The notes under the pieces were generated by a model that was not told the origin of the DNA, did not search any database, and saw only the letters and a list, made by a program, of their open reading frames with translations. A program made the translations under genes and the position numbers. From Actinomycetota bacterium (GTDB lineage Bacteria > Actinomycetota > JAICYB01), in contig DASQWC010000215.1 in the NCBI GenBank assembly GCA_035640475.1, forward strand, positions 1,450-65,449: DNA of 64,000 bases, given 5' to 3'. Shown piece after piece: positions 31,727-37,660 of the stretch. Positions within the stretch are counted from its first letter, which is position 1; every line of letters begins with the position of its first letter.

Positions 31727-32737
31727 GTGGCCCTTCGGCTCGTGGCAGCGACCGGCGACTCGGTGGCCGTCGTAGACGGCGTGCCGGACCGTCCCAATGT
31801 GTCGATCGGCCTCGAGGGATCGGGCGCGCAATGCGTCGCCGTCGATTCGAACGATCCCGCCCGCATCGTGGCCGGAACGTTGGACCGCGGCATCTTTCTC
31901 AGCCGCGACGCCGGCCGGAGCTGGGACGACGTGACCGGTTCGATCCCCAACAAGCGCGTGCTGTCGGCCGCGTTCTCACCGTGCGACCAAAGCAACGGCC
32001 GATCGGTCATCTACGCGGGAACCGAGCCGTCCAGCGTCTACCGATCGCGGGACGACGGCGAGTCATGGGAGGACCTCGAGACGCTGCGTGAGCTACCGAG
32101 CGCCCCGACGTGGTCGTTTCCGCCGCGTCCGTGGACCCATCACGTGCGCTGGATTGCGCCGCATCACACGAACGCCCAGATCCTCTTCGTCGGCATCGAG
32201 CTCGGCGGCGTCCTGCGCACGCTCGACGGCGGCGCAACGTGGGACGACAGGCATCCGGAAGCGGTCATCGATCCGCACGTGCTCCGGACCCATCCGGTCG
32301 CAACCGACCGCGTGTACGCGGTCGGCGGCGACGGCATCTCGTTCTCCGTCGACACGGGTCACGGATGGCAGCGTGACGTCGACGGCATGGATCGGTTCTA
32401 CAGCTGGGGACTTGCCGTGGACCCCGAGGACCCGGAGCTCTGGTACGCGTCCGCGTCGACCGGGCCGATGCAAGCGCACGGCGACGGCGACGCGCAAGCG
32501 CGCCTGTACCGGCGGACCGCCCGCGCGTCGTGGCAGCCGCTCGATCTCGACGGCCTGGGCGGCGTGAGCTCGGCGCTGACGCGCATGCCCTACGCGCTCG
32601 CCGCGCCCGAGCATTCGACACTCGTCGTCGGGCTGCGCGACGGCGTCGTGCTTCTCACCCGTGACGCGGGTGAGACGTGGCACACGCCGAATGTCCGGTT
32701 ACCGGGCATCCTCGCGCTTGCCGTCGCGTCTGTGTAG
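31727..32737 (+). CDS. BNR/Asp-box repeat beta-propeller protein
   Basis: ORF 31667..32737 with repeated SxDxGxxW boxes (SRDAGRSWD, SRDDGESWE, TLDGGATWD, SVDTGHGWQ, TRDAGETWH). GTG 31727 chosen; the start is uncertain. Confidence 0.7.
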   Translation: MALRLVAATGDSVAVVDGVPDRPNVSIGLEGSGAQCVAVDSNDPARIVAGTLDRGIFLSRDAGRSWDDVTGSIPNKRVLSAAFSPCDQSNGRSVIYAGTEPSSVYRSRDDGESWEDLETLRELPSAPTWSFPPRPWTHHVRWIAPHHTNAQILFVGIELGGVLRTLDGGATWDDRHPEAVIDPHVLRTHPVATDRVYAVGGDGISFSVDTGHGWQRDVDGMDRFYSWGLAVDPEDPELWYASASTGPMQAHGDGDAQARLYRRTARASWQPLDLDGLGGVSSALTRMPYALAAPEHSTLVVGLRDGVVLLTRDAGETWHTPNVRLPGILALAVASV

Positions 32738-32802
32738 CGCGACCTGCTTCGCGAGTGACCCGTCTATCCTGGGTATAGCGTCTGAGAAGTGTCCGAGAAC
32801 CG

Positions 32803-33663
32803 ATGAGTACCGACGCACAGCCTCTGAGGATCGTCCAGCTCTCCGACATCCATTGCGGAGAGGTGACTTTCGACGCCAAGCGCATGGAGTCGATCGTCCA
32901 GGACGTCAACGAGCTGGCGCCGGATCTCGTCATCGTCGTCGGCGATCTGACGGCGGCCGGCTACGAGTGGGAGTTCGCCGAGGCCGCCGACTGGCTCGGT
33001 CAGCTCGAGTTCCCGATGGTGGTCGTCCCGGGCAACCACGACGCGCGCAACGTGGGCTACCTGCACTTCGAGCACTACTTTGGCGACCGCTTCTCGTCAC
33101 ACCGGATCGCCCTCCACGGTGGGCGTGCACAGCACATCGGTGCACCCGGCGTCACGGTTGTCGCCGTCGACTCATCGGAGCCCGACCTGAACGAGGGACA
33201 GATCGGACGCGAGCGTTACCCGTGGATCCGTGAGCAGTTCACGCATCCGGACGATCTGAAGATCTTCGTCATCCACCACCATCTCGTCGCGATCCCGGGC
33301 ACCGGACGCGAGCGCAACACGATCAACGACGCCGGCGACGTGCTTGCCGAGCTCTCGCAGCTCGGGATCGACGTCGTGCTTTCCGGACACAAGCACGTCC
33401 CGTACTTCTGGGGCATCACGGGTCTTCTCATTTGCAACTCGGGAACCGCAACGACCAAGCGCTTGCGCGGTCTCACGCCGTCGTCGTGGAGCGAGCTCGA
33501 GGTCGATGCTCAGTCGATCAAGGTGTACCTGCACTACGAGAACGGACGGCGCGAGCTCGCATGCGTGCGCAGCCGAGGAACGCGCGCCATGGTGCGAGAA
33601 GGCTTCTACATCACCGACGAGTTCCTCGCGACAAACCACCTGCTGCCGCCGCGTTTGCCTTGA
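32803..33663 (+). CDS. metallophosphoesterase
   Basis: LSDIHCG...VVGDLT...GNHD...HHH...GHKH calcineurin-like phosphoesterase motifs. Confidence 0.85.
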   Translation: MSTDAQPLRIVQLSDIHCGEVTFDAKRMESIVQDVNELAPDLVIVVGDLTAAGYEWEFAEAADWLGQLEFPMVVVPGNHDARNVGYLHFEHYFGDRFSSHRIALHGGRAQHIGAPGVTVVAVDSSEPDLNEGQIGRERYPWIREQFTHPDDLKIFVIHHHLVAIPGTGRERNTINDAGDVLAELSQLGIDVVLSGHKHVPYFWGITGLLICNSGTATTKRLRGLTPSSWSELEVDAQSIKVYLHYENGRRELACVRSRGTRAMVREGFYITDEFLATNHLLPPRLP

Positions 33664-33698
33664 CGTCGGTCGAACACCCCCGTACGCTCGTTGCGCTG

Positions 33699-33770
33699 AT
33701 GACGTACGCGAGCTGGTATTTCGGCTTTTTTGGCGCCCTGCGGCGCCCGGCCAGCGCGCGTCTGTCATAG
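33699..33770 (+). CDS. candidate leader peptide MTYASWYFGFFGALRRPASARLS (aromatic-codon rich)
   Basis: ATG 33699 to TAG 33770, which is the tail of track ORF 33432..33770. Six of codons 3-11 are Tyr/Trp/Phe. It lies between the upstream stop and a terminator in front of aroF. Confidence 0.55.
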   Translation: MTYASWYFGFFGALRRPASARLS

Positions 33771-33793
33771 CGGCAGAGCAAGCGAATCGGGAG

Positions 33794-33822
33794 CCCCGGG
33801 GCGAAGACCCGGGGTTTTTTTT
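33794..33822 (+). terminator. intrinsic terminator / attenuator hairpin
   Basis: ccccggg (33794-33800), loop gcgaaga, cccgggg (33808-33814), then T8 (33815-33822). The aroF ATG follows at 33833. Confidence 0.7.
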
Positions 33823-33832
33823 GTGAGGCAAG

Positions 33833-34891
33833 ATGGCGAAAAGGGGTGACATCGAGATGGTCGTCGTGATGGATACGAAAGCGCGATCCGCCGACATCGA
33901 ACGTGTCGTGCACGAGGTGGAGGCGGTCGGGGGCCAGGCCTTCGTGTCTCCGGGCAAGCTCCGCACTGTCATCGGACTCGTCGGCGATACCGCTCGGTTC
34001 ATGGAGCTGCCGCTCGCCACGCTGCCGCACGTCGAGCAAGTCATCCGCGTCGGCAAGCCGTACAAGCTCGTCGCCCGCGAGCTGCACCAGGAGGCGACGA
34101 TCGTGAACGTCGGCGGCGTCGCCATAGGCGAGGGAACCGTGACCGTCATCGCGGGACCGTGCGCGATCGAGAACGAGTCGCAAGCGCTCGAAGCGGCGCG
34201 CATGGCGCAGGAGGTCGGCGCCCACATTCTCCGCGGCGACGCCTACAAGCACCGATCTTCCCCGTACTCCTTCCAAGGACTCGCGAAGCGGGGCCTCGAG
34301 ATCCTCAAGCAGATGTCCATCGAGACGGGCATGCCGACCGTCACGGAGGTTCTCGAGCCCGGGGACGTCGAGCTCGTCGCCGAATACGCCGACATGCTCC
34401 GCGTCGGCACGCGGAACAGCCAGAACTTCCCGCTCCTGCGCGAGTGCGGCCGGTCCGGCAAGCCCGTCATGCTCAAGCGCGGCATGGCCTCCACGATCGA
34501 GGAATGGCTGATGGCGGCCGAGTACGTTGCCCGTGAAGGCAACAACGACATCGTGCTCTGCGAGCGCGGCATTCGAACGTACGAGGACGCCTACCGGAAC
34601 ACGCTCGACGTGTCCGCCGTCCCGGCGACGAAAGCACTGACGCATCTGCCGGTGATCGTCGACCCTTCGCACTCGGGCGGACGCCGCGAGCTCGTCGCTC
34701 CGCTGGCTCGAGCCGCCGTGGCGGCTGGGGCCGACGCGGTCATGATCGACGTCCATCCCGACCCCCGGACGGCTCTGTGCGACGGCCCGCAAGCCCTGAC
34801 GCGCGACGACCTGGCGGAGCTCTCCGGCGAGCTCTTCGCGATCGCCGAAGCCGTCGGCAAGAAGCCGGCAACACACGCGGCGCGGGGCTGA
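33833..34891 (+). CDS. aroF: 3-deoxy-7-phosphoheptulonate (DAHP) synthase, type I-beta with N-terminal ferredoxin-like regulatory domain
   Basis: An N-terminal ~70-aa domain (MVVVMDTKARSADIERVVHEVEAVGG), then IAGPCAIE...GDAYKHRSSPYSFQG...VGTRNSQNF...KRG...DPSHSGG. Confidence 0.9.
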   Translation: MAKRGDIEMVVVMDTKARSADIERVVHEVEAVGGQAFVSPGKLRTVIGLVGDTARFMELPLATLPHVEQVIRVGKPYKLVARELHQEATIVNVGGVAIGEGTVTVIAGPCAIENESQALEAARMAQEVGAHILRGDAYKHRSSPYSFQGLAKRGLEILKQMSIETGMPTVTEVLEPGDVELVAEYADMLRVGTRNSQNFPLLRECGRSGKPVMLKRGMASTIEEWLMAAEYVAREGNNDIVLCERGIRTYEDAYRNTLDVSAVPATKALTHLPVIVDPSHSGGRRELVAPLARAAVAAGADAVMIDVHPDPRTALCDGPQALTRDDLAELSGELFAIAEAVGKKPATHAARG

Positions 34892-34892
34892 G

Positions 34893-35894
34893 ATGCCGGG
34901 TCGCAAGGTCGCGCTCACGGGGATTCAGCCCTCGGGAACGCCGCACATCGGCAATTACCTCGGGATGATCCGGCCTGCCCTGGAGCTGGCGCGCGACTAC
35001 GACGCCTACTACTTCATCGCCGACGGTCACGCGCTGACGACCGTTCGCGATCCGCAGCTCCTGCGCGATCAGACATATGAGATTGCCGCCGTCATGCTCG
35101 CGCTCGGCCTCGATCCCGAACGCGTCGTCCTCTACAGGCAGTCGGACATCCGCGAGGTCTTCGAGCTGGCTTGGATACTGAGCTCCGTCACACCCAAGGG
35201 CCTACTCAATCGAGCCCACGCCTACAAGGACGCCGTCGCGGAGAACGAAGCCGCCGGGCGTCCTGCAGACGACGGCGTCTCCATGGGCTTGTTCTCGTAC
35301 CCCGTGCTGATGGCGGCCGACATTTTGATCGTCGACGCGAACGTCGTCCCAGTCGGCTCCGATCAGCGCCAGCATGTCGAGATGGCGCGCGACATGGCCG
35401 AGGCGTTCAATCGCGCCTACGGTGAGGTGTTCGTCCTACCCGAGCCTCTCATCGACGACTCGGTCGCGACGATCACGGGCCTCGACGGCCGCAAGATGTC
35501 GAAGAGCTACGGCAACGTGATCCCGATCTTCGGCTCGCCCGCCGAGCAGCGAAAGCTCGTCAAGAGGATCGTCACCGACTCGCGGCCCCCGGAGGAGCCG
35601 AAGGATCCGGAAACAGACAACCTGTTTCAGATCTACGCGAGCGTCGCCCCGCCCGAGCGCGTCGAAGCCATGCGCGAGCGGTACATCGCGGGCGGCCTGG
35701 GCTACGGCGAGGTCAAAGAAGAGCTGGCCGGCATCCTCGAGGACGTCTTCGCCGCGCCGCGCGATCGATACGATGCGCTCATGTCCGACCGCACTCGCAT
35801 CGAAGAGGTCCTCGCCGACGGCGCTCGCCGGGCGAGACAGGTCACGAACGCCGTCACGTCGCGGGCGCGCAAAGCCGTCGGGCTCGAGTCATAG
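34893..35894 (+). CDS. trpS: tryptophan--tRNA ligase
   Basis: GIQPSGTPHIGNYLG (HIGH) and GRKMSKSYGN (KMSKS). The start lies 1 nt after the aroF stop. Confidence 0.95.
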   Translation: MPGRKVALTGIQPSGTPHIGNYLGMIRPALELARDYDAYYFIADGHALTTVRDPQLLRDQTYEIAAVMLALGLDPERVVLYRQSDIREVFELAWILSSVTPKGLLNRAHAYKDAVAENEAAGRPADDGVSMGLFSYPVLMAADILIVDANVVPVGSDQRQHVEMARDMAEAFNRAYGEVFVLPEPLIDDSVATITGLDGRKMSKSYGNVIPIFGSPAEQRKLVKRIVTDSRPPEEPKDPETDNLFQIYASVAPPERVEAMRERYIAGGLGYGEVKEELAGILEDVFAAPRDRYDALMSDRTRIEEVLADGARRARQVTNAVTSRARKAVGLES

Positions 35895-35896
35895 CC

Positions 35897-36304
35897 GTGG
35901 CCGACCTCGTCGTCACACCGGACGGCATCGGCTACAAGCGGCGCAATCCGTGGGGCGTGTTCCTGCTGACCTTCATCACGCTCGGGATCTACGGGCTGGT
36001 CTGGTACTACAAAGTCAACAACGAGCTGAAGAACTTCGGCGTCCGCAACGACCCGGTGGTCGCGCTGCTCGCCGTGACGCTCGGCGCGACCGTCATCGTC
36101 CCGCCGTTCGTGTCCTACTACCGGACGGCCGCGCGCATCCAGAACGCGCAGGAGAACGCCGGTGCGAGCGAGCGCATGAGTCCGCTGGTCGGGCTCGTGC
36201 TGGTGATCTTCCTCAACACGTTCGCCTTCGTCTACTACCAGTCGCAGATCAACAAAGTCTGGGACGCGCTCGCATCACAGGGAGCGGACGTCCGACCCGC
36301 GTAG
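35897..36304 (+). CDS. DUF4234-type membrane protein
   Basis: RRNPWGVFLLTFITLGIYGLVWYYKVNNELKNFG is the DUF4234 signature. The GTG start lies 2 nt after the trpS stop. Confidence 0.7.
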   Translation: MADLVVTPDGIGYKRRNPWGVFLLTFITLGIYGLVWYYKVNNELKNFGVRNDPVVALLAVTLGATVIVPPFVSYYRTAARIQNAQENAGASERMSPLVGLVLVIFLNTFAFVYYQSQINKVWDALASQGADVRPA

Positions 36305-36314
36305 CGCGCGGCTG

Positions 36315-37532
36315 CTAGCGCATGAGCCGGCGGCGAAGACCGAAGCCGCCGAACGCCAGACCGAGACCGCCGATCACCGCCGCGCCGACTCCGGCACCCG
36401 TACGCGGAAGCTGAGGATTGTTCTTCTTCGCGATCGGGTCCTGGAAGTTACCGGCCGACAGCACCTCGGTGTGGACGAGCTCGACGCCGATGTTCGGCAG
36501 CGGCGCGCCCAGCAGGTTCAGCGCAACCGCGTCGGCCGTGGCCTTGGCGCACGCGTCGTAGCGAGCCAGATCACCGGCGCACGTCGTGTCGGTGAGGCCG
36601 CGCTCGGTCGCGATGCTCGTCGCCAGCGGCGTGCCGTCCAGGATCGAAAGATCCTGCGGCGCCGTGATGGTCTGGTCGATCAGTGCGTCATCCGCAGCCG
36701 GCGTGAGGAGGTTCAGCGCACGCACGTGGATAAGCGAGACGTCGGCGGTTGCTTCCGGCTTGCCGTCGACGAGCGCCGCCGCGGCCTTCGCGACGGCAAC
36801 TTCGATCGTCAGCACGCCGCCGAGCACGTCGATCGTCAACGCCGTGCCCGGCGACACCGAAGCGATGCCGGGCGTCGTCGACGTCACCGTGCCGTGATTC
36901 GGCGCAACGCTGATCTTGAGCAGCGGGGCCGAGCTGAGCTTGGACTGGATCGAGTCGATCACGCTGTCGACCTGACCCCGTGTCCCCTCGGGAAGTGCGG
37001 TGAGGACGCCCTGAACGGTGTCGAGGAACTCGTTGACCTGCGGCACGCTGTCCACGACGGCGTTCGTGAGTCGAATCTCCGCGAGCACCTCACCGGCCGC
37101 GTGGTCGGCCTTCGGCAGAGAGCCCATCGCGAGTGCGCAGCTGGCCAGACCGAGCTTGGCCGTCAGCAGAGGCGCAAGCGATTCCGGCGTCGAGATCGCG
37201 GTGACTTCGTCCTCGAGCTTCGGAGGAGCGCAGGAGACACTCGTGTCCGCGAGGCCGGGAATGACGACGCCGCGGGCGTCTGCCTTCGCGATCTGGTCGA
37301 GGATCTGGATGGGCGAGTGCTTGACCCGGGCGTATCCCGCCCGGCTCTCGCCGCCGCCGACCGTCAGCTCGAGGTCGCCGATGGTCACCTTGACGGCGTG
37401 GCTGCCCGCCGCACCGACGAACGATCCGAGATTCGGAGCCAGCTCGGCTCCCCCGGCCGGCATGACGCTGGAGCCCACCAACAGCACTCCGGCGAGGAAT
37501 GCAACAACGTAGGTACTGAGTCGCTTGCGCAT
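36315..37532 (-). CDS. LPXTG-anchored cell-surface protein
   Basis: ORF 36315..37580 with a signal peptide and a C-terminal LPRTG + TM + RRRLMR sorting signal. Start at ATG 37532, with GGGAGG upstream. Confidence 0.8.
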   Translation of the reverse strand: MRKRLSTYVVAFLAGVLLVGSSVMPAGGAELAPNLGSFVGAAGSHAVKVTIGDLELTVGGGESRAGYARVKHSPIQILDQIAKADARGVVIPGLADTSVSCAPPKLEDEVTAISTPESLAPLLTAKLGLASCALAMGSLPKADHAAGEVLAEIRLTNAVVDSVPQVNEFLDTVQGVLTALPEGTRGQVDSVIDSIQSKLSSAPLLKISVAPNHGTVTSTTPGIASVSPGTALTIDVLGGVLTIEVAVAKAAAALVDGKPEATADVSLIHVRALNLLTPAADDALIDQTITAPQDLSILDGTPLATSIATERGLTDTTCAGDLARYDACAKATADAVALNLLGAPLPNIGVELVHTEVLSAGNFQDPIAKKNNPQLPRTGAGVGAAVIGGLGLAFGGFGLRRRLMR

Positions 37533-37660
37533 GGAACGCCTCCCGCCTTGCGTAAAGTCGAGACACCCTACTCGACTCATCCAAACACCGCCACGCCGTC
37601 GTTAGCGGCTCTAGCAGCCAAAATACAACTCTTCGACCGCTTTGTAACTAGTATCGGGAC

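Follow-up and report, generated by a model that had tools for sequence, protein, structure and literature searches.

A putative leader-peptide attenuator mixing Trp, Tyr and Phe codons upstream of an actinobacterial aroF-trpS operon

How is an aromatic amino-acid operon transcribed when the gap in front of it holds a short ORF crowded with aromatic codons, followed by a hairpin and a T-run? We addressed this question for the aroF-trpS-DUF4234 operon of an actinobacterial window, by which we mean the whole 64-kb stretch of DNA analyzed. The host organism is represented by metagenome assemblies only. Ribosome-mediated attenuation is a textbook mechanism, and our analysis suggests, with a probability of roughly 85%, that this operon is controlled by a ribosome-mediated (leader-peptide) transcription attenuator. 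Pfam assignments (Metallophos, DAHP_synth_1 with DAHP_snth_FXD, tRNA-synt_1b and DUF4234) agree with the gene identities that an earlier note had proposed, and re-measurement returned its values for the gap between the upstream stop codon and the aroF ATG (169 nt) and for the two spacers within the operon. The complete regulatory unit is contained in 33660–33832; its parts and the surrounding genes are listed here in order.

33663, + strand: last base of the stop codon of the metallophosphoesterase gene (Pfam Metallophos), the upstream neighbor
33660–33665, + strand: −35 box TTGACG of the leader promoter, overlapping the phosphoesterase stop codon
33683–33688, + strand: −10 box TACGCT, of the actinobacterial TAnnnT type, separated by 17 nt from the −35 box and by 10 nt from the leader ATG
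33699–33770, + strand: leader ORF MTYASWYFGFFGALRRPASARLS, 23 codons plus TAG (33768–33770), from translation
33705–33731, + strand: control codons Y3 TAC, W6 TGG, Y7 TAT, F8 TTC, F10 TTT and F11 TTT
33793–33822, + strand: intrinsic terminator from folding, with stem 33793–33800 / 33808–33815, a 7-nt loop and U8 at 33815–33822
33825–33828, + strand: aroF Shine-Dalgarno sequence GAGG
33833–34891, + strand: aroF, encoding a type Iβ DAHP synthase whose N-terminal regulatory domain is ferredoxin-like (Pfam PF00793, DAHP_synth_1, and PF18152, DAHP_snth_FXD)
34893–35894, + strand: trpS, tryptophanyl-tRNA synthetase (tRNA-synt_1b), 1 nt after aroF and in the same transcription unit
35897–36304, + strand: DUF4234 gene, 2 nt after trpS, the final gene of the transcription unit

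Re-reading the mini-ORF confirmed both its limits and its aromatic content, as six of codons 3–11 specify aromatic residues. This density is the sole case among the 113,377 stop-free 9-codon windows in six frames of the 64 kb, and the aromatic share in five neighboring CDSs is 7%. The two self-complementary GC segments described earlier were also found in place, namely GGCGCC-CTGC-GGCGCC at 33732–33747 and CTGTC-ATAGC-GGCAG at 33762–33776, the latter spanning the stop codon.

The earlier note had proposed a search of related genomes, and there the mini-ORF is kept together with the hairpin whatever gene lies upstream. An aromatic mini-ORF with a GCCCCGGG..CCCGGGGC hairpin precedes a type Iβ DAHP synthase gene at 115 of about 150 usable loci, drawn from many actinobacterial orders, and 14 distinct sequences of the window's own clade carry the unit (enzyme identity 77–90%). 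The upstream genes vary and include Metallophos, DUF1996, AP_endonuc_2 and a minus-strand PPK2, with strands taken from called genes; GC3, which left strands indistinguishable in high-GC DNA, was dropped. The attenuator had been assigned to aroF-trpS as a pair. Its association with DAHP synthase is the conserved part of that claim, whereas the trpS link is peculiar to the window's subclade, within which aroF-trpS synteny is kept.

Several features of the family suggest that the leaders are translated. Trp, Tyr and Phe are all present in 85 of the 103 distinct leader peptides, and the rare codons TTT and TAT make up 48–49% of leader Phe/Tyr codons compared to 2% in the adjacent enzyme CDS. In an alignment of 57 sequences (A2), Phe, Tyr and Trp swap at the aromatic positions, the stop codon is confined to one column, and the triplet columns from leader codon 5 through the stop are gap-free or gapped by whole triplets, except for three mid-ORF triplets (alignment columns 46–54) with partial-codon gaps in a few rows. 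We read the triplet-gap pattern, the swapping and the codon bias as signs of translation. The peptides share a plan (M-x3-5, an aromatic run, G, ..R-P.. and a basic tail), which the window leader fits, as it does in position and order of parts, and it has WYFGFFGALRRP in common with the leader peptide of locus L175 (MKAFARWYFGFFGALRRPGVR). Main-class leaders conserve an internal R-P / G-P motif and a C-terminal (L/M)(R/H)-UGA, and some subclasses terminate in P-A or R-P. Outside the aromatic run the peptides diverge strongly between classes, and the tail is more conserved than the assigned RNA pairs explain.

The earlier note had reasoned that the operon can be transcribed only through the terminator. 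There is indeed no room for a second promoter after it, with 10 nt (GTGAGGCAAG, including GAGG) between the T8 run and the aroF ATG, as stated before. What that account overlooked is the dedicated leader promoter (TTGACG-17-TACGCT) over the phosphoesterase stop codon, and the unit is therefore not supplied solely by phosphoesterase read-through. TTGAC occurs at the equivalent position in window-clade relatives, the promoter boxes and start codon are conserved in alignments, and in main-class leaders the end of the TAnnnT box lies 7 nt from the ATG/GTG. In the window, transcription would start at about 33695, and the leader mRNA is probably (nearly) leaderless because this position is only a few nucleotides before ATG 33699, which has no Shine-Dalgarno sequence.

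The terminator reported earlier folds as CCCCGGG(G)/(C)CCCGGGG at −18.1 kcal/mol. Its core GCCCCGGG/CCCGGGGC is invariant in 57/57 aligned loci while the stem base shows compensatory changes, and the bases flanking the invariant CCCGG:CCGGG core match lineage by lineage (GCG/CGC, CGG/CCG, CGA/TCG and GGG/CCC). A consensus promoter/terminator scan called neither element at the leader region. We rejected this null as a false negative, as direct folding shows the hairpin plainly; the likely causes of the miss are G-U pairing that prolongs the stem into the U-tract and a −10 box that agrees with TATAAT at only 3/6 positions.

A terminator that serves as a switch calls for a competing structure. 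The earlier reader had seen no convincing antiterminator, but folding with the aromatic codons masked yields one, a pairing of 33734–33750 with 33787–33803 that competes with the terminator. The folding results define the following elements.

33699–33768, + strand: P1, a 'protector' fold of the ribosome-free leader (−36.8 kcal/mol, z −3.8), pairing 33699–33704, 33706–33710 and 33712–33717 with 33763–33768, 33757–33761 and 33750–33755, respectively
33732–33737 / 33742–33747, + strand: cap hairpin of P1, GGCGCC/GGCGCC
33734–33750, + strand: antiterminator 5' strand (codons 12–18, GCC CUG CGG CGC CCG G)
33787–33803, + strand: antiterminator 3' strand UCGGGAGCCCCGGGGCG, comprising the terminator base, its 5' arm and first loop bases
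33761–33779, + strand: inner hairpin of the antiterminator, UCUGUC/GGCAGA, around the stop codon

In the ribosome-free RNA the ORF folds on itself as P1 and the terminator forms; P1 takes up the 5' arm of the inner hairpin, and the aromatic codons sit within or beside the P1 5' strand. None of 200 shuffles was as stable as P1. The antiterminator pairing appears in transcripts that end before the terminator 3' arm, with a ribosome on codons 3–8 or with none.

Comparative evidence bears on both states. P1 with the terminator is 85% paired across A2, compared to 32–48% when the partners are slid, with 13 compensatory pairs and a covariation score reached by 0/500 shuffles; in the window clade it is 73.5% paired, and its 15 compensatory pairs exceed the 8.9±1.8 obtained from shuffles. 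For the main-class antiterminator the paired share is 83%, versus 24–46% slid, but compensatory pairs number just three; its inner helix GGUCGC/GCGACC, the analogue of 33761–33779, is 86% paired with two. Leaders also interact more strongly with their own terminators than with those of other members, both across the family (cognate −13.5 versus chimeric −10.4 kcal/mol, Wilcoxon p = 5e-13) and in the window (−22.8 versus −10.8 kcal/mol). The exact antiterminator register of the window is not conserved columnwise in its own clade (47% paired versus 41–43% slid), where the sole shared part is the core (G)CGCCCGG:CCGGGCG(C). Thus covariation argues for the ribosome-free fold of self-folded ORF and terminator and, less strongly, for the antiterminator. 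RNAalifold on MAFFT alignments recovered just the terminator and a short portion of P1, since indels separate the classes, and we therefore counted pairs per named structure in the alignments.

Folding calculations also constrain how such a switch could work. At equilibrium, with the aromatic codons masked in full transcripts, the terminator was lost in just 6 of 115 sequences, and in the window only with a stall at F8. The switch must therefore be kinetic, a process on which full-transcript masked folding is uninformative, and we used transcripts cut before the terminator 3' arm instead. In these the antiterminator is the minimum-energy fold even without a ribosome, so the model depends on P1 forming first.

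Together the locus holds a post-promoter ORF, a run of control codons, an intrinsic terminator, a predicted antiterminator that would exclude it and a protector fold that stalling on the aromatic codons would open. Conservation and the competing fold thus lend support to the reading of the earlier note, attenuation by the ribosome through a mixture of Trp, Tyr and Phe codons, and we propose that it works as follows. RNA synthesis would begin from the boxes at 33660–33665 and 33683–33688, and the leader would be translated from its (nearly) leaderless mRNA. With charged Trp-, Tyr- and Phe-tRNAs abundant, the ribosome would pass codons 3–11 and reach the stop codon, with 33734–33750 being unwound or recaptured by the P1/GGCGCC fold. 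The terminator would form next, and the transcript would end 10 nt short of aroF. Scarcity of any one of the three charged tRNAs would presumably stall the ribosome on the aromatic codons at 33705–33731, where it would occupy the P1 5' strand (33699–33717) and, at later codons, the first GGCGCC arm as well. The released 33734–33750 could then pair with 33787–33803, aided by the inner hairpin over the stop codon. If the terminator 5' arm were captured in this way before the 3' arm is synthesized, RNA polymerase would continue into aroF.

Searches of databases and of the window itself found no catalogued relative. The Rfam comparison suggested earlier for a known leader or T-box matched no family: neither the window region nor any of ten related loci gave a gathering-score match (Trp_leader, Phe_leader or others), and there was no T-box match even at E ≤ 10 in 33000–34500 or at gathering score in the ten loci. 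The sub-threshold Rfam matches are unrelated small RNAs that arise by chance and are driven by the terminator. The leader peptides matched no NCBIfam or Pfam family, and in the openly accessible literature we found no prior description of a leader family before type Iβ DAHP synthase. A covariance model (R1) built from 57 main-class members, excluding the window, matched the window at 33743–33823 on the + strand (25.7 bits, E = 5e-5), mostly by aligning the terminator and spacer and skipping the 5' domain. Held-out classes scored 20–98 bits, and the nearest relatives of the window, L001 and L002, fall below E = 0.01. The only other R1 match in the 64 kb falls on the opposite strand of this palindromic hairpin (9.7 bits, E = 0.78), and by this model the window holds no second copy of the element. 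A fixed-spacing hairpin search of the window returned zero matches, missing even the element itself because its loop length differs.

We weighed attenuation against other explanations of the same features. The hairpin might merely terminate the phosphoesterase gene, the mini-ORF being a chance frame; it does lie 130 nt past that gene's stop on the same strand, and spurious ORFs abound in high-GC genomes. Yet ORF and hairpin accompany the DAHP synthase gene behind unrelated genes, one of them on the minus strand, at more than 100 loci, a conserved promoter separates the upstream gene from the ORF, and only 1 of the 113,377 codon windows is this rich in aromatic residues, which leaves this explanation close to negligible. 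A switch that works without translation, whether as a riboswitch, as a T-box-like sensor of tRNA or through a bound protein, would suit an RNA with strongly conserved sequence and alternative helices, but it gives no account of why the frame, the start and stop codons and the class of the aromatic codons are conserved, and it has the Rfam result for the window region and ten related loci against it, T-box included; we consider it extremely unlikely.

Explanations that accept the peptide fare little better. Sensing of a free amino acid or small molecule by the nascent peptide in the exit tunnel, as in TnaC, instead of sensing of tRNA charging, is highly improbable. The conserved R-P / G-P and (L/M)(R/H)-UGA of the main class and the P-A or R-P subclass endings are what would recommend it, whereas a run of control codons with rare synonymous codons is a signature of charged-tRNA sensing, the peptides are strongly class-specific outside that run, and the locus has an intrinsic terminator overlapped by an antiterminator, not a Rho-dependent layout. 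Finally, the ORF could be an independent small-protein gene (e.g. for a hydrophobic micropeptide) with its own terminator, aroF being expressed by constitutive leakage; a variant has the ~125-nt RNA or its peptide acting in trans, for which rnTrpL/peTrpL in Sinorhizobium, attenuator products with trans functions, provide precedent (PMC6614838, PMC7968998). The excess conservation of the peptide tail over the assigned RNA pairing speaks for a small protein, but free exchange of Phe, Tyr and Trp and a preference for rare TTT and TAT would be surprising in a structural peptide, the exclusive folds overlapping the terminator 5' arm would have no role, and the exclusive association with the aromatic entry enzyme suits a sensor. 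We regard this explanation as very unlikely, and a trans function could in any case accompany attenuation, not replace it.

Attenuation by the leader peptide thus remains the preferred reading, and as such the leader is a further case of a known kind of attenuation, from a family absent from Rfam, Pfam and NCBIfam; no existing concept is overturned. Tentatively, and with slightly more doubt than belief, we suggest a large, ancient and uncatalogued actinobacterial family in which a leaderless leader reads Trp-, Tyr- and Phe-tRNA charging at one attenuator with a nearly invariant terminator core before type Iβ DAHP synthase, in which the peptide tail may bring in a nascent-chain or release-factor component, and from which the window lineage captured trpS. 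If trpS was indeed captured by an aromatic switch, a lack of Phe or Tyr would raise tryptophanyl-tRNA synthetase as well. Many actinobacteria beyond Corynebacterium probably control transcription of the first shikimate-pathway enzyme by such leaders, and one RNA device would integrate three aromatic end products atop the enzyme's allosteric domain. Because the family is missing from the three databases, its mini-ORFs and terminators escape annotation in thousands of genomes. More than 100 natural attenuator variants are a resource for studying the coupling of leaderless translation to termination and for aromatic amino-acid biosensors.

The window enzyme, of type Iβ with a ferredoxin-like domain, differs from the AroF of Corynebacterium glutamicum, which is an E. 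coli-like type Iα enzyme. In the nearest comparable system, C. glutamicum aroR-aroF, the available descriptions place a leader with Phe-Tyr-Phe upstream of aroF (PMC11802643, PMC4046766, PMC7356990), and a primer contains the AroF N-terminus MSSPVSLEN (PMC7356990). The earlier note knew of no mixed-aromatic leader before aroF-trpS; before aroF itself, aroR is such a precedent in the accessible accounts (PMC11802643, PMC4046766). Both systems, as far as aroR is described there, have an actinobacterial mixed-aromatic leader right in front of a DAHP synthase gene, and ribosome stalling is reported to raise read-through in C. glutamicum, like the mechanism proposed here. Compared by description only, the aroR motif is F-Y-F without Trp, unlike the leaders reported here, most of which combine all three residues. 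In C. glutamicum only Phe limitation, and not Tyr limitation, is reported to have affected aroR-aroF (PMC11802643), so sensing of three amino acids is not guaranteed here.

The enterobacterial leaders trpL, pheL (pheA) and pheM (pheST) have the same architecture, with control codons in a leader ORF, a 1:2 protector, a 2:3 antiterminator and a 3:4 terminator, and pheST likewise places a tRNA-synthetase gene under leader control. Each of these senses a single amino acid through a Shine-Dalgarno-led leader, whereas the window leader mixes three, is (nearly) leaderless and precedes the entry enzyme of the common pathway. Among actinobacteria, the Streptomyces leader peptides trpL1 (trpE), trpL2 (trpS), ilvL and leuL are also leaderless (PMC1262725, PMC8079986) and share TAnnnT promoters, a short leader and GC-rich conserved segments with triple pairing; they serve other genes with other control codons. 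Some Streptomyces also have trpS under leader control, which in the window occurs only with trpS as a passenger of aroF. For the Phe/Tyr genes of Actinobacteria, a 2005 survey detected no RNA element that is conserved (PMC1262725). The uORFC-13-1 motif of Acholeplasma, proposed from comparative data only and located exclusively upstream of aroF (PMC8632094), similarly has an upstream ORF with Phe codons right before a terminator; that motif is U-rich, limited to Phe and found in Mollicutes, and no sequence kinship with the actinobacterial family is expected.

The DNA ahead of the aroF-trpS-DUF4234 operon is predicted to be a leader-peptide attenuator of classical mechanism, and judging from its relatives it probably belongs to a large unannotated family. 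An earlier note had proposed that the leader and terminator before aroF, the type Iβ DAHP synthase gene, form an attenuator, and conservation, codon bias and mutually exclusive folds support this reading. Its sequence description (mini-ORF, aromatic codons, GC segments, hairpin with T8, spacing) also matched exactly on re-inspection. By Pfam, a Metallophos gene lies upstream of the leader, and downstream are DAHP_synth_1 with an N-terminal ferredoxin-like domain, a class I W/Y tRNA synthetase and DUF4234, the last two after spacers of 1 and 2 nt.

Features of the element (window positions)
33660-33665, +, -35 box TTGACG, overlapping the stop codon of the upstream gene
33683-33688, +, -10 box TACGCT, of the actinobacterial TAnnnT type, 17 nt after the -35 box and 10 nt before the leader ATG
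33699-33770, +, leader mini-ORF from ATG to TAG, reading MTYASWYFGFFGALRRPASARLS
codons 3, 6, 7, 8, 10 and 11 of the mini-ORF, +, aromatic codons TAC, TGG, TAT, TTC, TTT and TTT
33732-33747, +, self-complementary segment GGCGCC-CTGC-GGCGCC
33762-33776, +, CTGTC-ATAGC-GGCAG across the leader stop codon
33793-33800 / 33808-33815, +, terminator GC hairpin, -18.1 kcal/mol by folding
33815-33822, +, T8 run after the hairpin
33833, +, aroF start, ten nt after T8 with GAGG between

From the promoter boxes, which the earlier description did not include, we infer the transcription start of the leader. No Shine-Dalgarno sequence precedes the leader ATG in the window; in the largest leader class the end of the -10 box and the ATG/GTG are 7 nt apart, matching leaderless-mRNA geometry. 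Because the element has its own promoter, with TTGACG/TAnnnT boxes found again in relatives, it is a self-contained unit rather than the end of the phosphoesterase gene. A consensus promoter and terminator scan of 32500-36500 returned zero sites; this was a false negative, as TTGACG-17-TACGCT and the hairpin with U8 are present and direct folding shows the hairpin. Scans of this type miss sites in actinobacterial DNA of high GC content.

We scanned one-genome-per-species contigs and metagenome contigs for the enzyme, yielding 160 loci, Actinomycetota without exception, and added 15 through protein search and contig look-ups (enzyme identity 77-90%). Among about 150 loci with sufficient upstream sequence, in 115 the enzyme gene is preceded by an ORF of 17-27 codons rich in aromatic residues and then a hairpin with core GCCCCGGG..CCCGGGGC. 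Carriers include Streptosporangium, Nonomuraea, Microbispora, Actinomadura, Spirillospora, Nocardiopsis, Glycomyces, Nocardioides and Longivirga, along with MAGs of Frankiales, Mycobacteriales and Nanopelagicales. Mini-ORF and hairpin are thus kept together, as the attenuator reading called for, and they stand behind differing genes (Metallophos, DUF1996, AP_endonuc_2, minus-strand PPK2); therefore the leader unit goes with the enzyme gene. At four loci where the aromatic-ORF filter gave no leader, the main-class covariance model matched at the expected position with 24-26 bits (L031:2841-2958, L050:1362-1482, L095:1411-1493, L013:2895-2949); they could represent degenerate variants or variants with different coding.

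Leader peptide classes
main class, MRQQFWFWFGYRPGSRTVARQTLR and variants
second class, MxxxWYGFPDRDSRSGAC
third class, ..FFYGG..PA
window's own clade, 14 distinct sequences, for example MKAFARWYFGFFGALRRPGVR at locus L175

A trpS gene behind aroF is confined to the window's subclade (34893-36304 in the window, DUF4234 gene included; loci L001, L002, L161-L165, L169, L171, L172 and L175), usually with the DUF4234 membrane-protein gene next, and occurs at 2 of 132 loci in a broad sample; other lineages have leader and aroF alone. Directly after the window's operon, a 421-aa convergent ORF (36315-37580, -) has no Pfam match; the convergent neighbour in relatives is a Beta_elim_lyase/aminotransferase-like gene.

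Several features point to translation of the leaders. In the 57-sequence main-class alignment, gaps within the ORF are whole triplets, apart from partial-codon gaps in a few rows at three mid-ORF codon columns, and the stop codon is confined to one column. The leaders have an aromatic residue at codon positions 5-9 and 11, but which one it is varies (for example F42/Y14/W1, W33/F16, Y29/F28). Of 103 distinct peptides, 102 contain F, 100 Y, 89 W and 85 all three. Across the leaders of loci L001-L175 and the window, the aromatic positions are dominated by rare codons ending in U: TTT makes up 48% of Phe and TAT 49% of Tyr codons, versus 2% each in the adjacent DAHP synthase genes. An apparently selected aromatic class with putatively slow synonymous codons is the pattern expected of attenuator control codons. 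In the window, six aromatic residues in nine codons is the sole such case among 113,377 stop-free windows (six frames, 64 kb), and the run is not explained by composition. The main-class tail R-T-V-A-(R/C)-Q-x-(L/M)-(R/H)-UGA is highly conserved (alignment columns 49-78, e.g. L009:2827-2856), and its Leu codon alternates CTG/TTG/ATG, which is conservative at the peptide level. Within this stretch the assigned RNA helix is only 61-68% paired, and assignable RNA pairs appear to account only partly for this conservation; the nascent peptide or its release may also have an effect.

Folding yielded three structures that share strands and are mutually exclusive. In ribosome-free RNA, a protector (P1) pairs 33699-33717 with 33750-33768 under a GGCGCC hairpin cap (-36.8 kcal/mol, z -3.8), and the terminator forms alongside it. 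With the aromatic codons masked, mimicking a stalled ribosome, 33734-33750 would capture 33787-33803, supplying the antiterminator that the earlier note could not identify; it also appears in transcripts that end short of the terminator 3' arm. These 15 bp cover the terminator base, 5' arm and first loop bases and stack on the stop-codon hairpin (-43.3 kcal/mol). At equilibrium, full transcripts with a masked ribosome lost the terminator in just 6 of 115 sequences, so the decision must be kinetic. Cut transcripts prefer the antiterminator even without a ribosome; the model therefore requires that P1 would fold before it.

Comparative data support these folds, the antiterminator less strongly. 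The ribosome-free fold is 85% paired in the main class versus 32-48% with partners slid, with 13 compensatory pairs and a covariation score matched by 0 of 500 shuffles; in the window clade pairing stands at 73.5%, and there are 15 compensatory pairs versus 8.9±1.8 in shuffles. The main-class antiterminator is 83% paired versus 24-46% slid, with only 3 compensatory pairs. Leaders pair better with their own terminator region than with another sequence's (-13.5 versus -10.4 kcal/mol, p = 5e-13; window -22.8 versus -10.8), and lineage-matched bases flank an invariant CCCGG:CCGGG core. The window's exact antiterminator register showed no column-by-column conservation within its clade. CCCCGGGG is itself palindromic, which gives the leader and the two terminator arms several possible pairing registers. 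The terminator core (33793-33815 and more than 100 related loci) is essentially invariant over many actinobacterial orders, an unusual degree of conservation for a terminator stem. The main-class covariance model scored held-out classes at 20-98 bits and found the window element as the only strong match in 64 kb (E = 5e-5), chiefly through terminator and spacer.

Rfam 15, searched for a known leader as the earlier note had proposed, Pfam and NCBIfam yielded no matching family, and a literature search, with several relevant subscription papers outside its reach, found no description of a leader family before type Iβ DAHP synthase. The kind of regulator is already well known; the family itself is without annotation. 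Leaderless leaders are known in Streptomyces ahead of trpE, trpS, ilvB and leuA (PMC8079986, PMC1262725), a 2005 actinobacterial survey reported nothing for Phe/Tyr genes (PMC1262725), and an upstream ORF with Phe codons has been proposed before aroF in Acholeplasma (PMC8632094). The predicted mechanism is that of classical leader-peptide attenuators. The earlier note knew of no described mixed-aromatic leader in front of an aroF-trpS operon, but for aroF there is precedent in C. glutamicum, the nearest described case, where the aroR leader before aroF carries Phe-Tyr-Phe and has been shown to respond to Phe, not Tyr (PMC11802643, PMC4046766).
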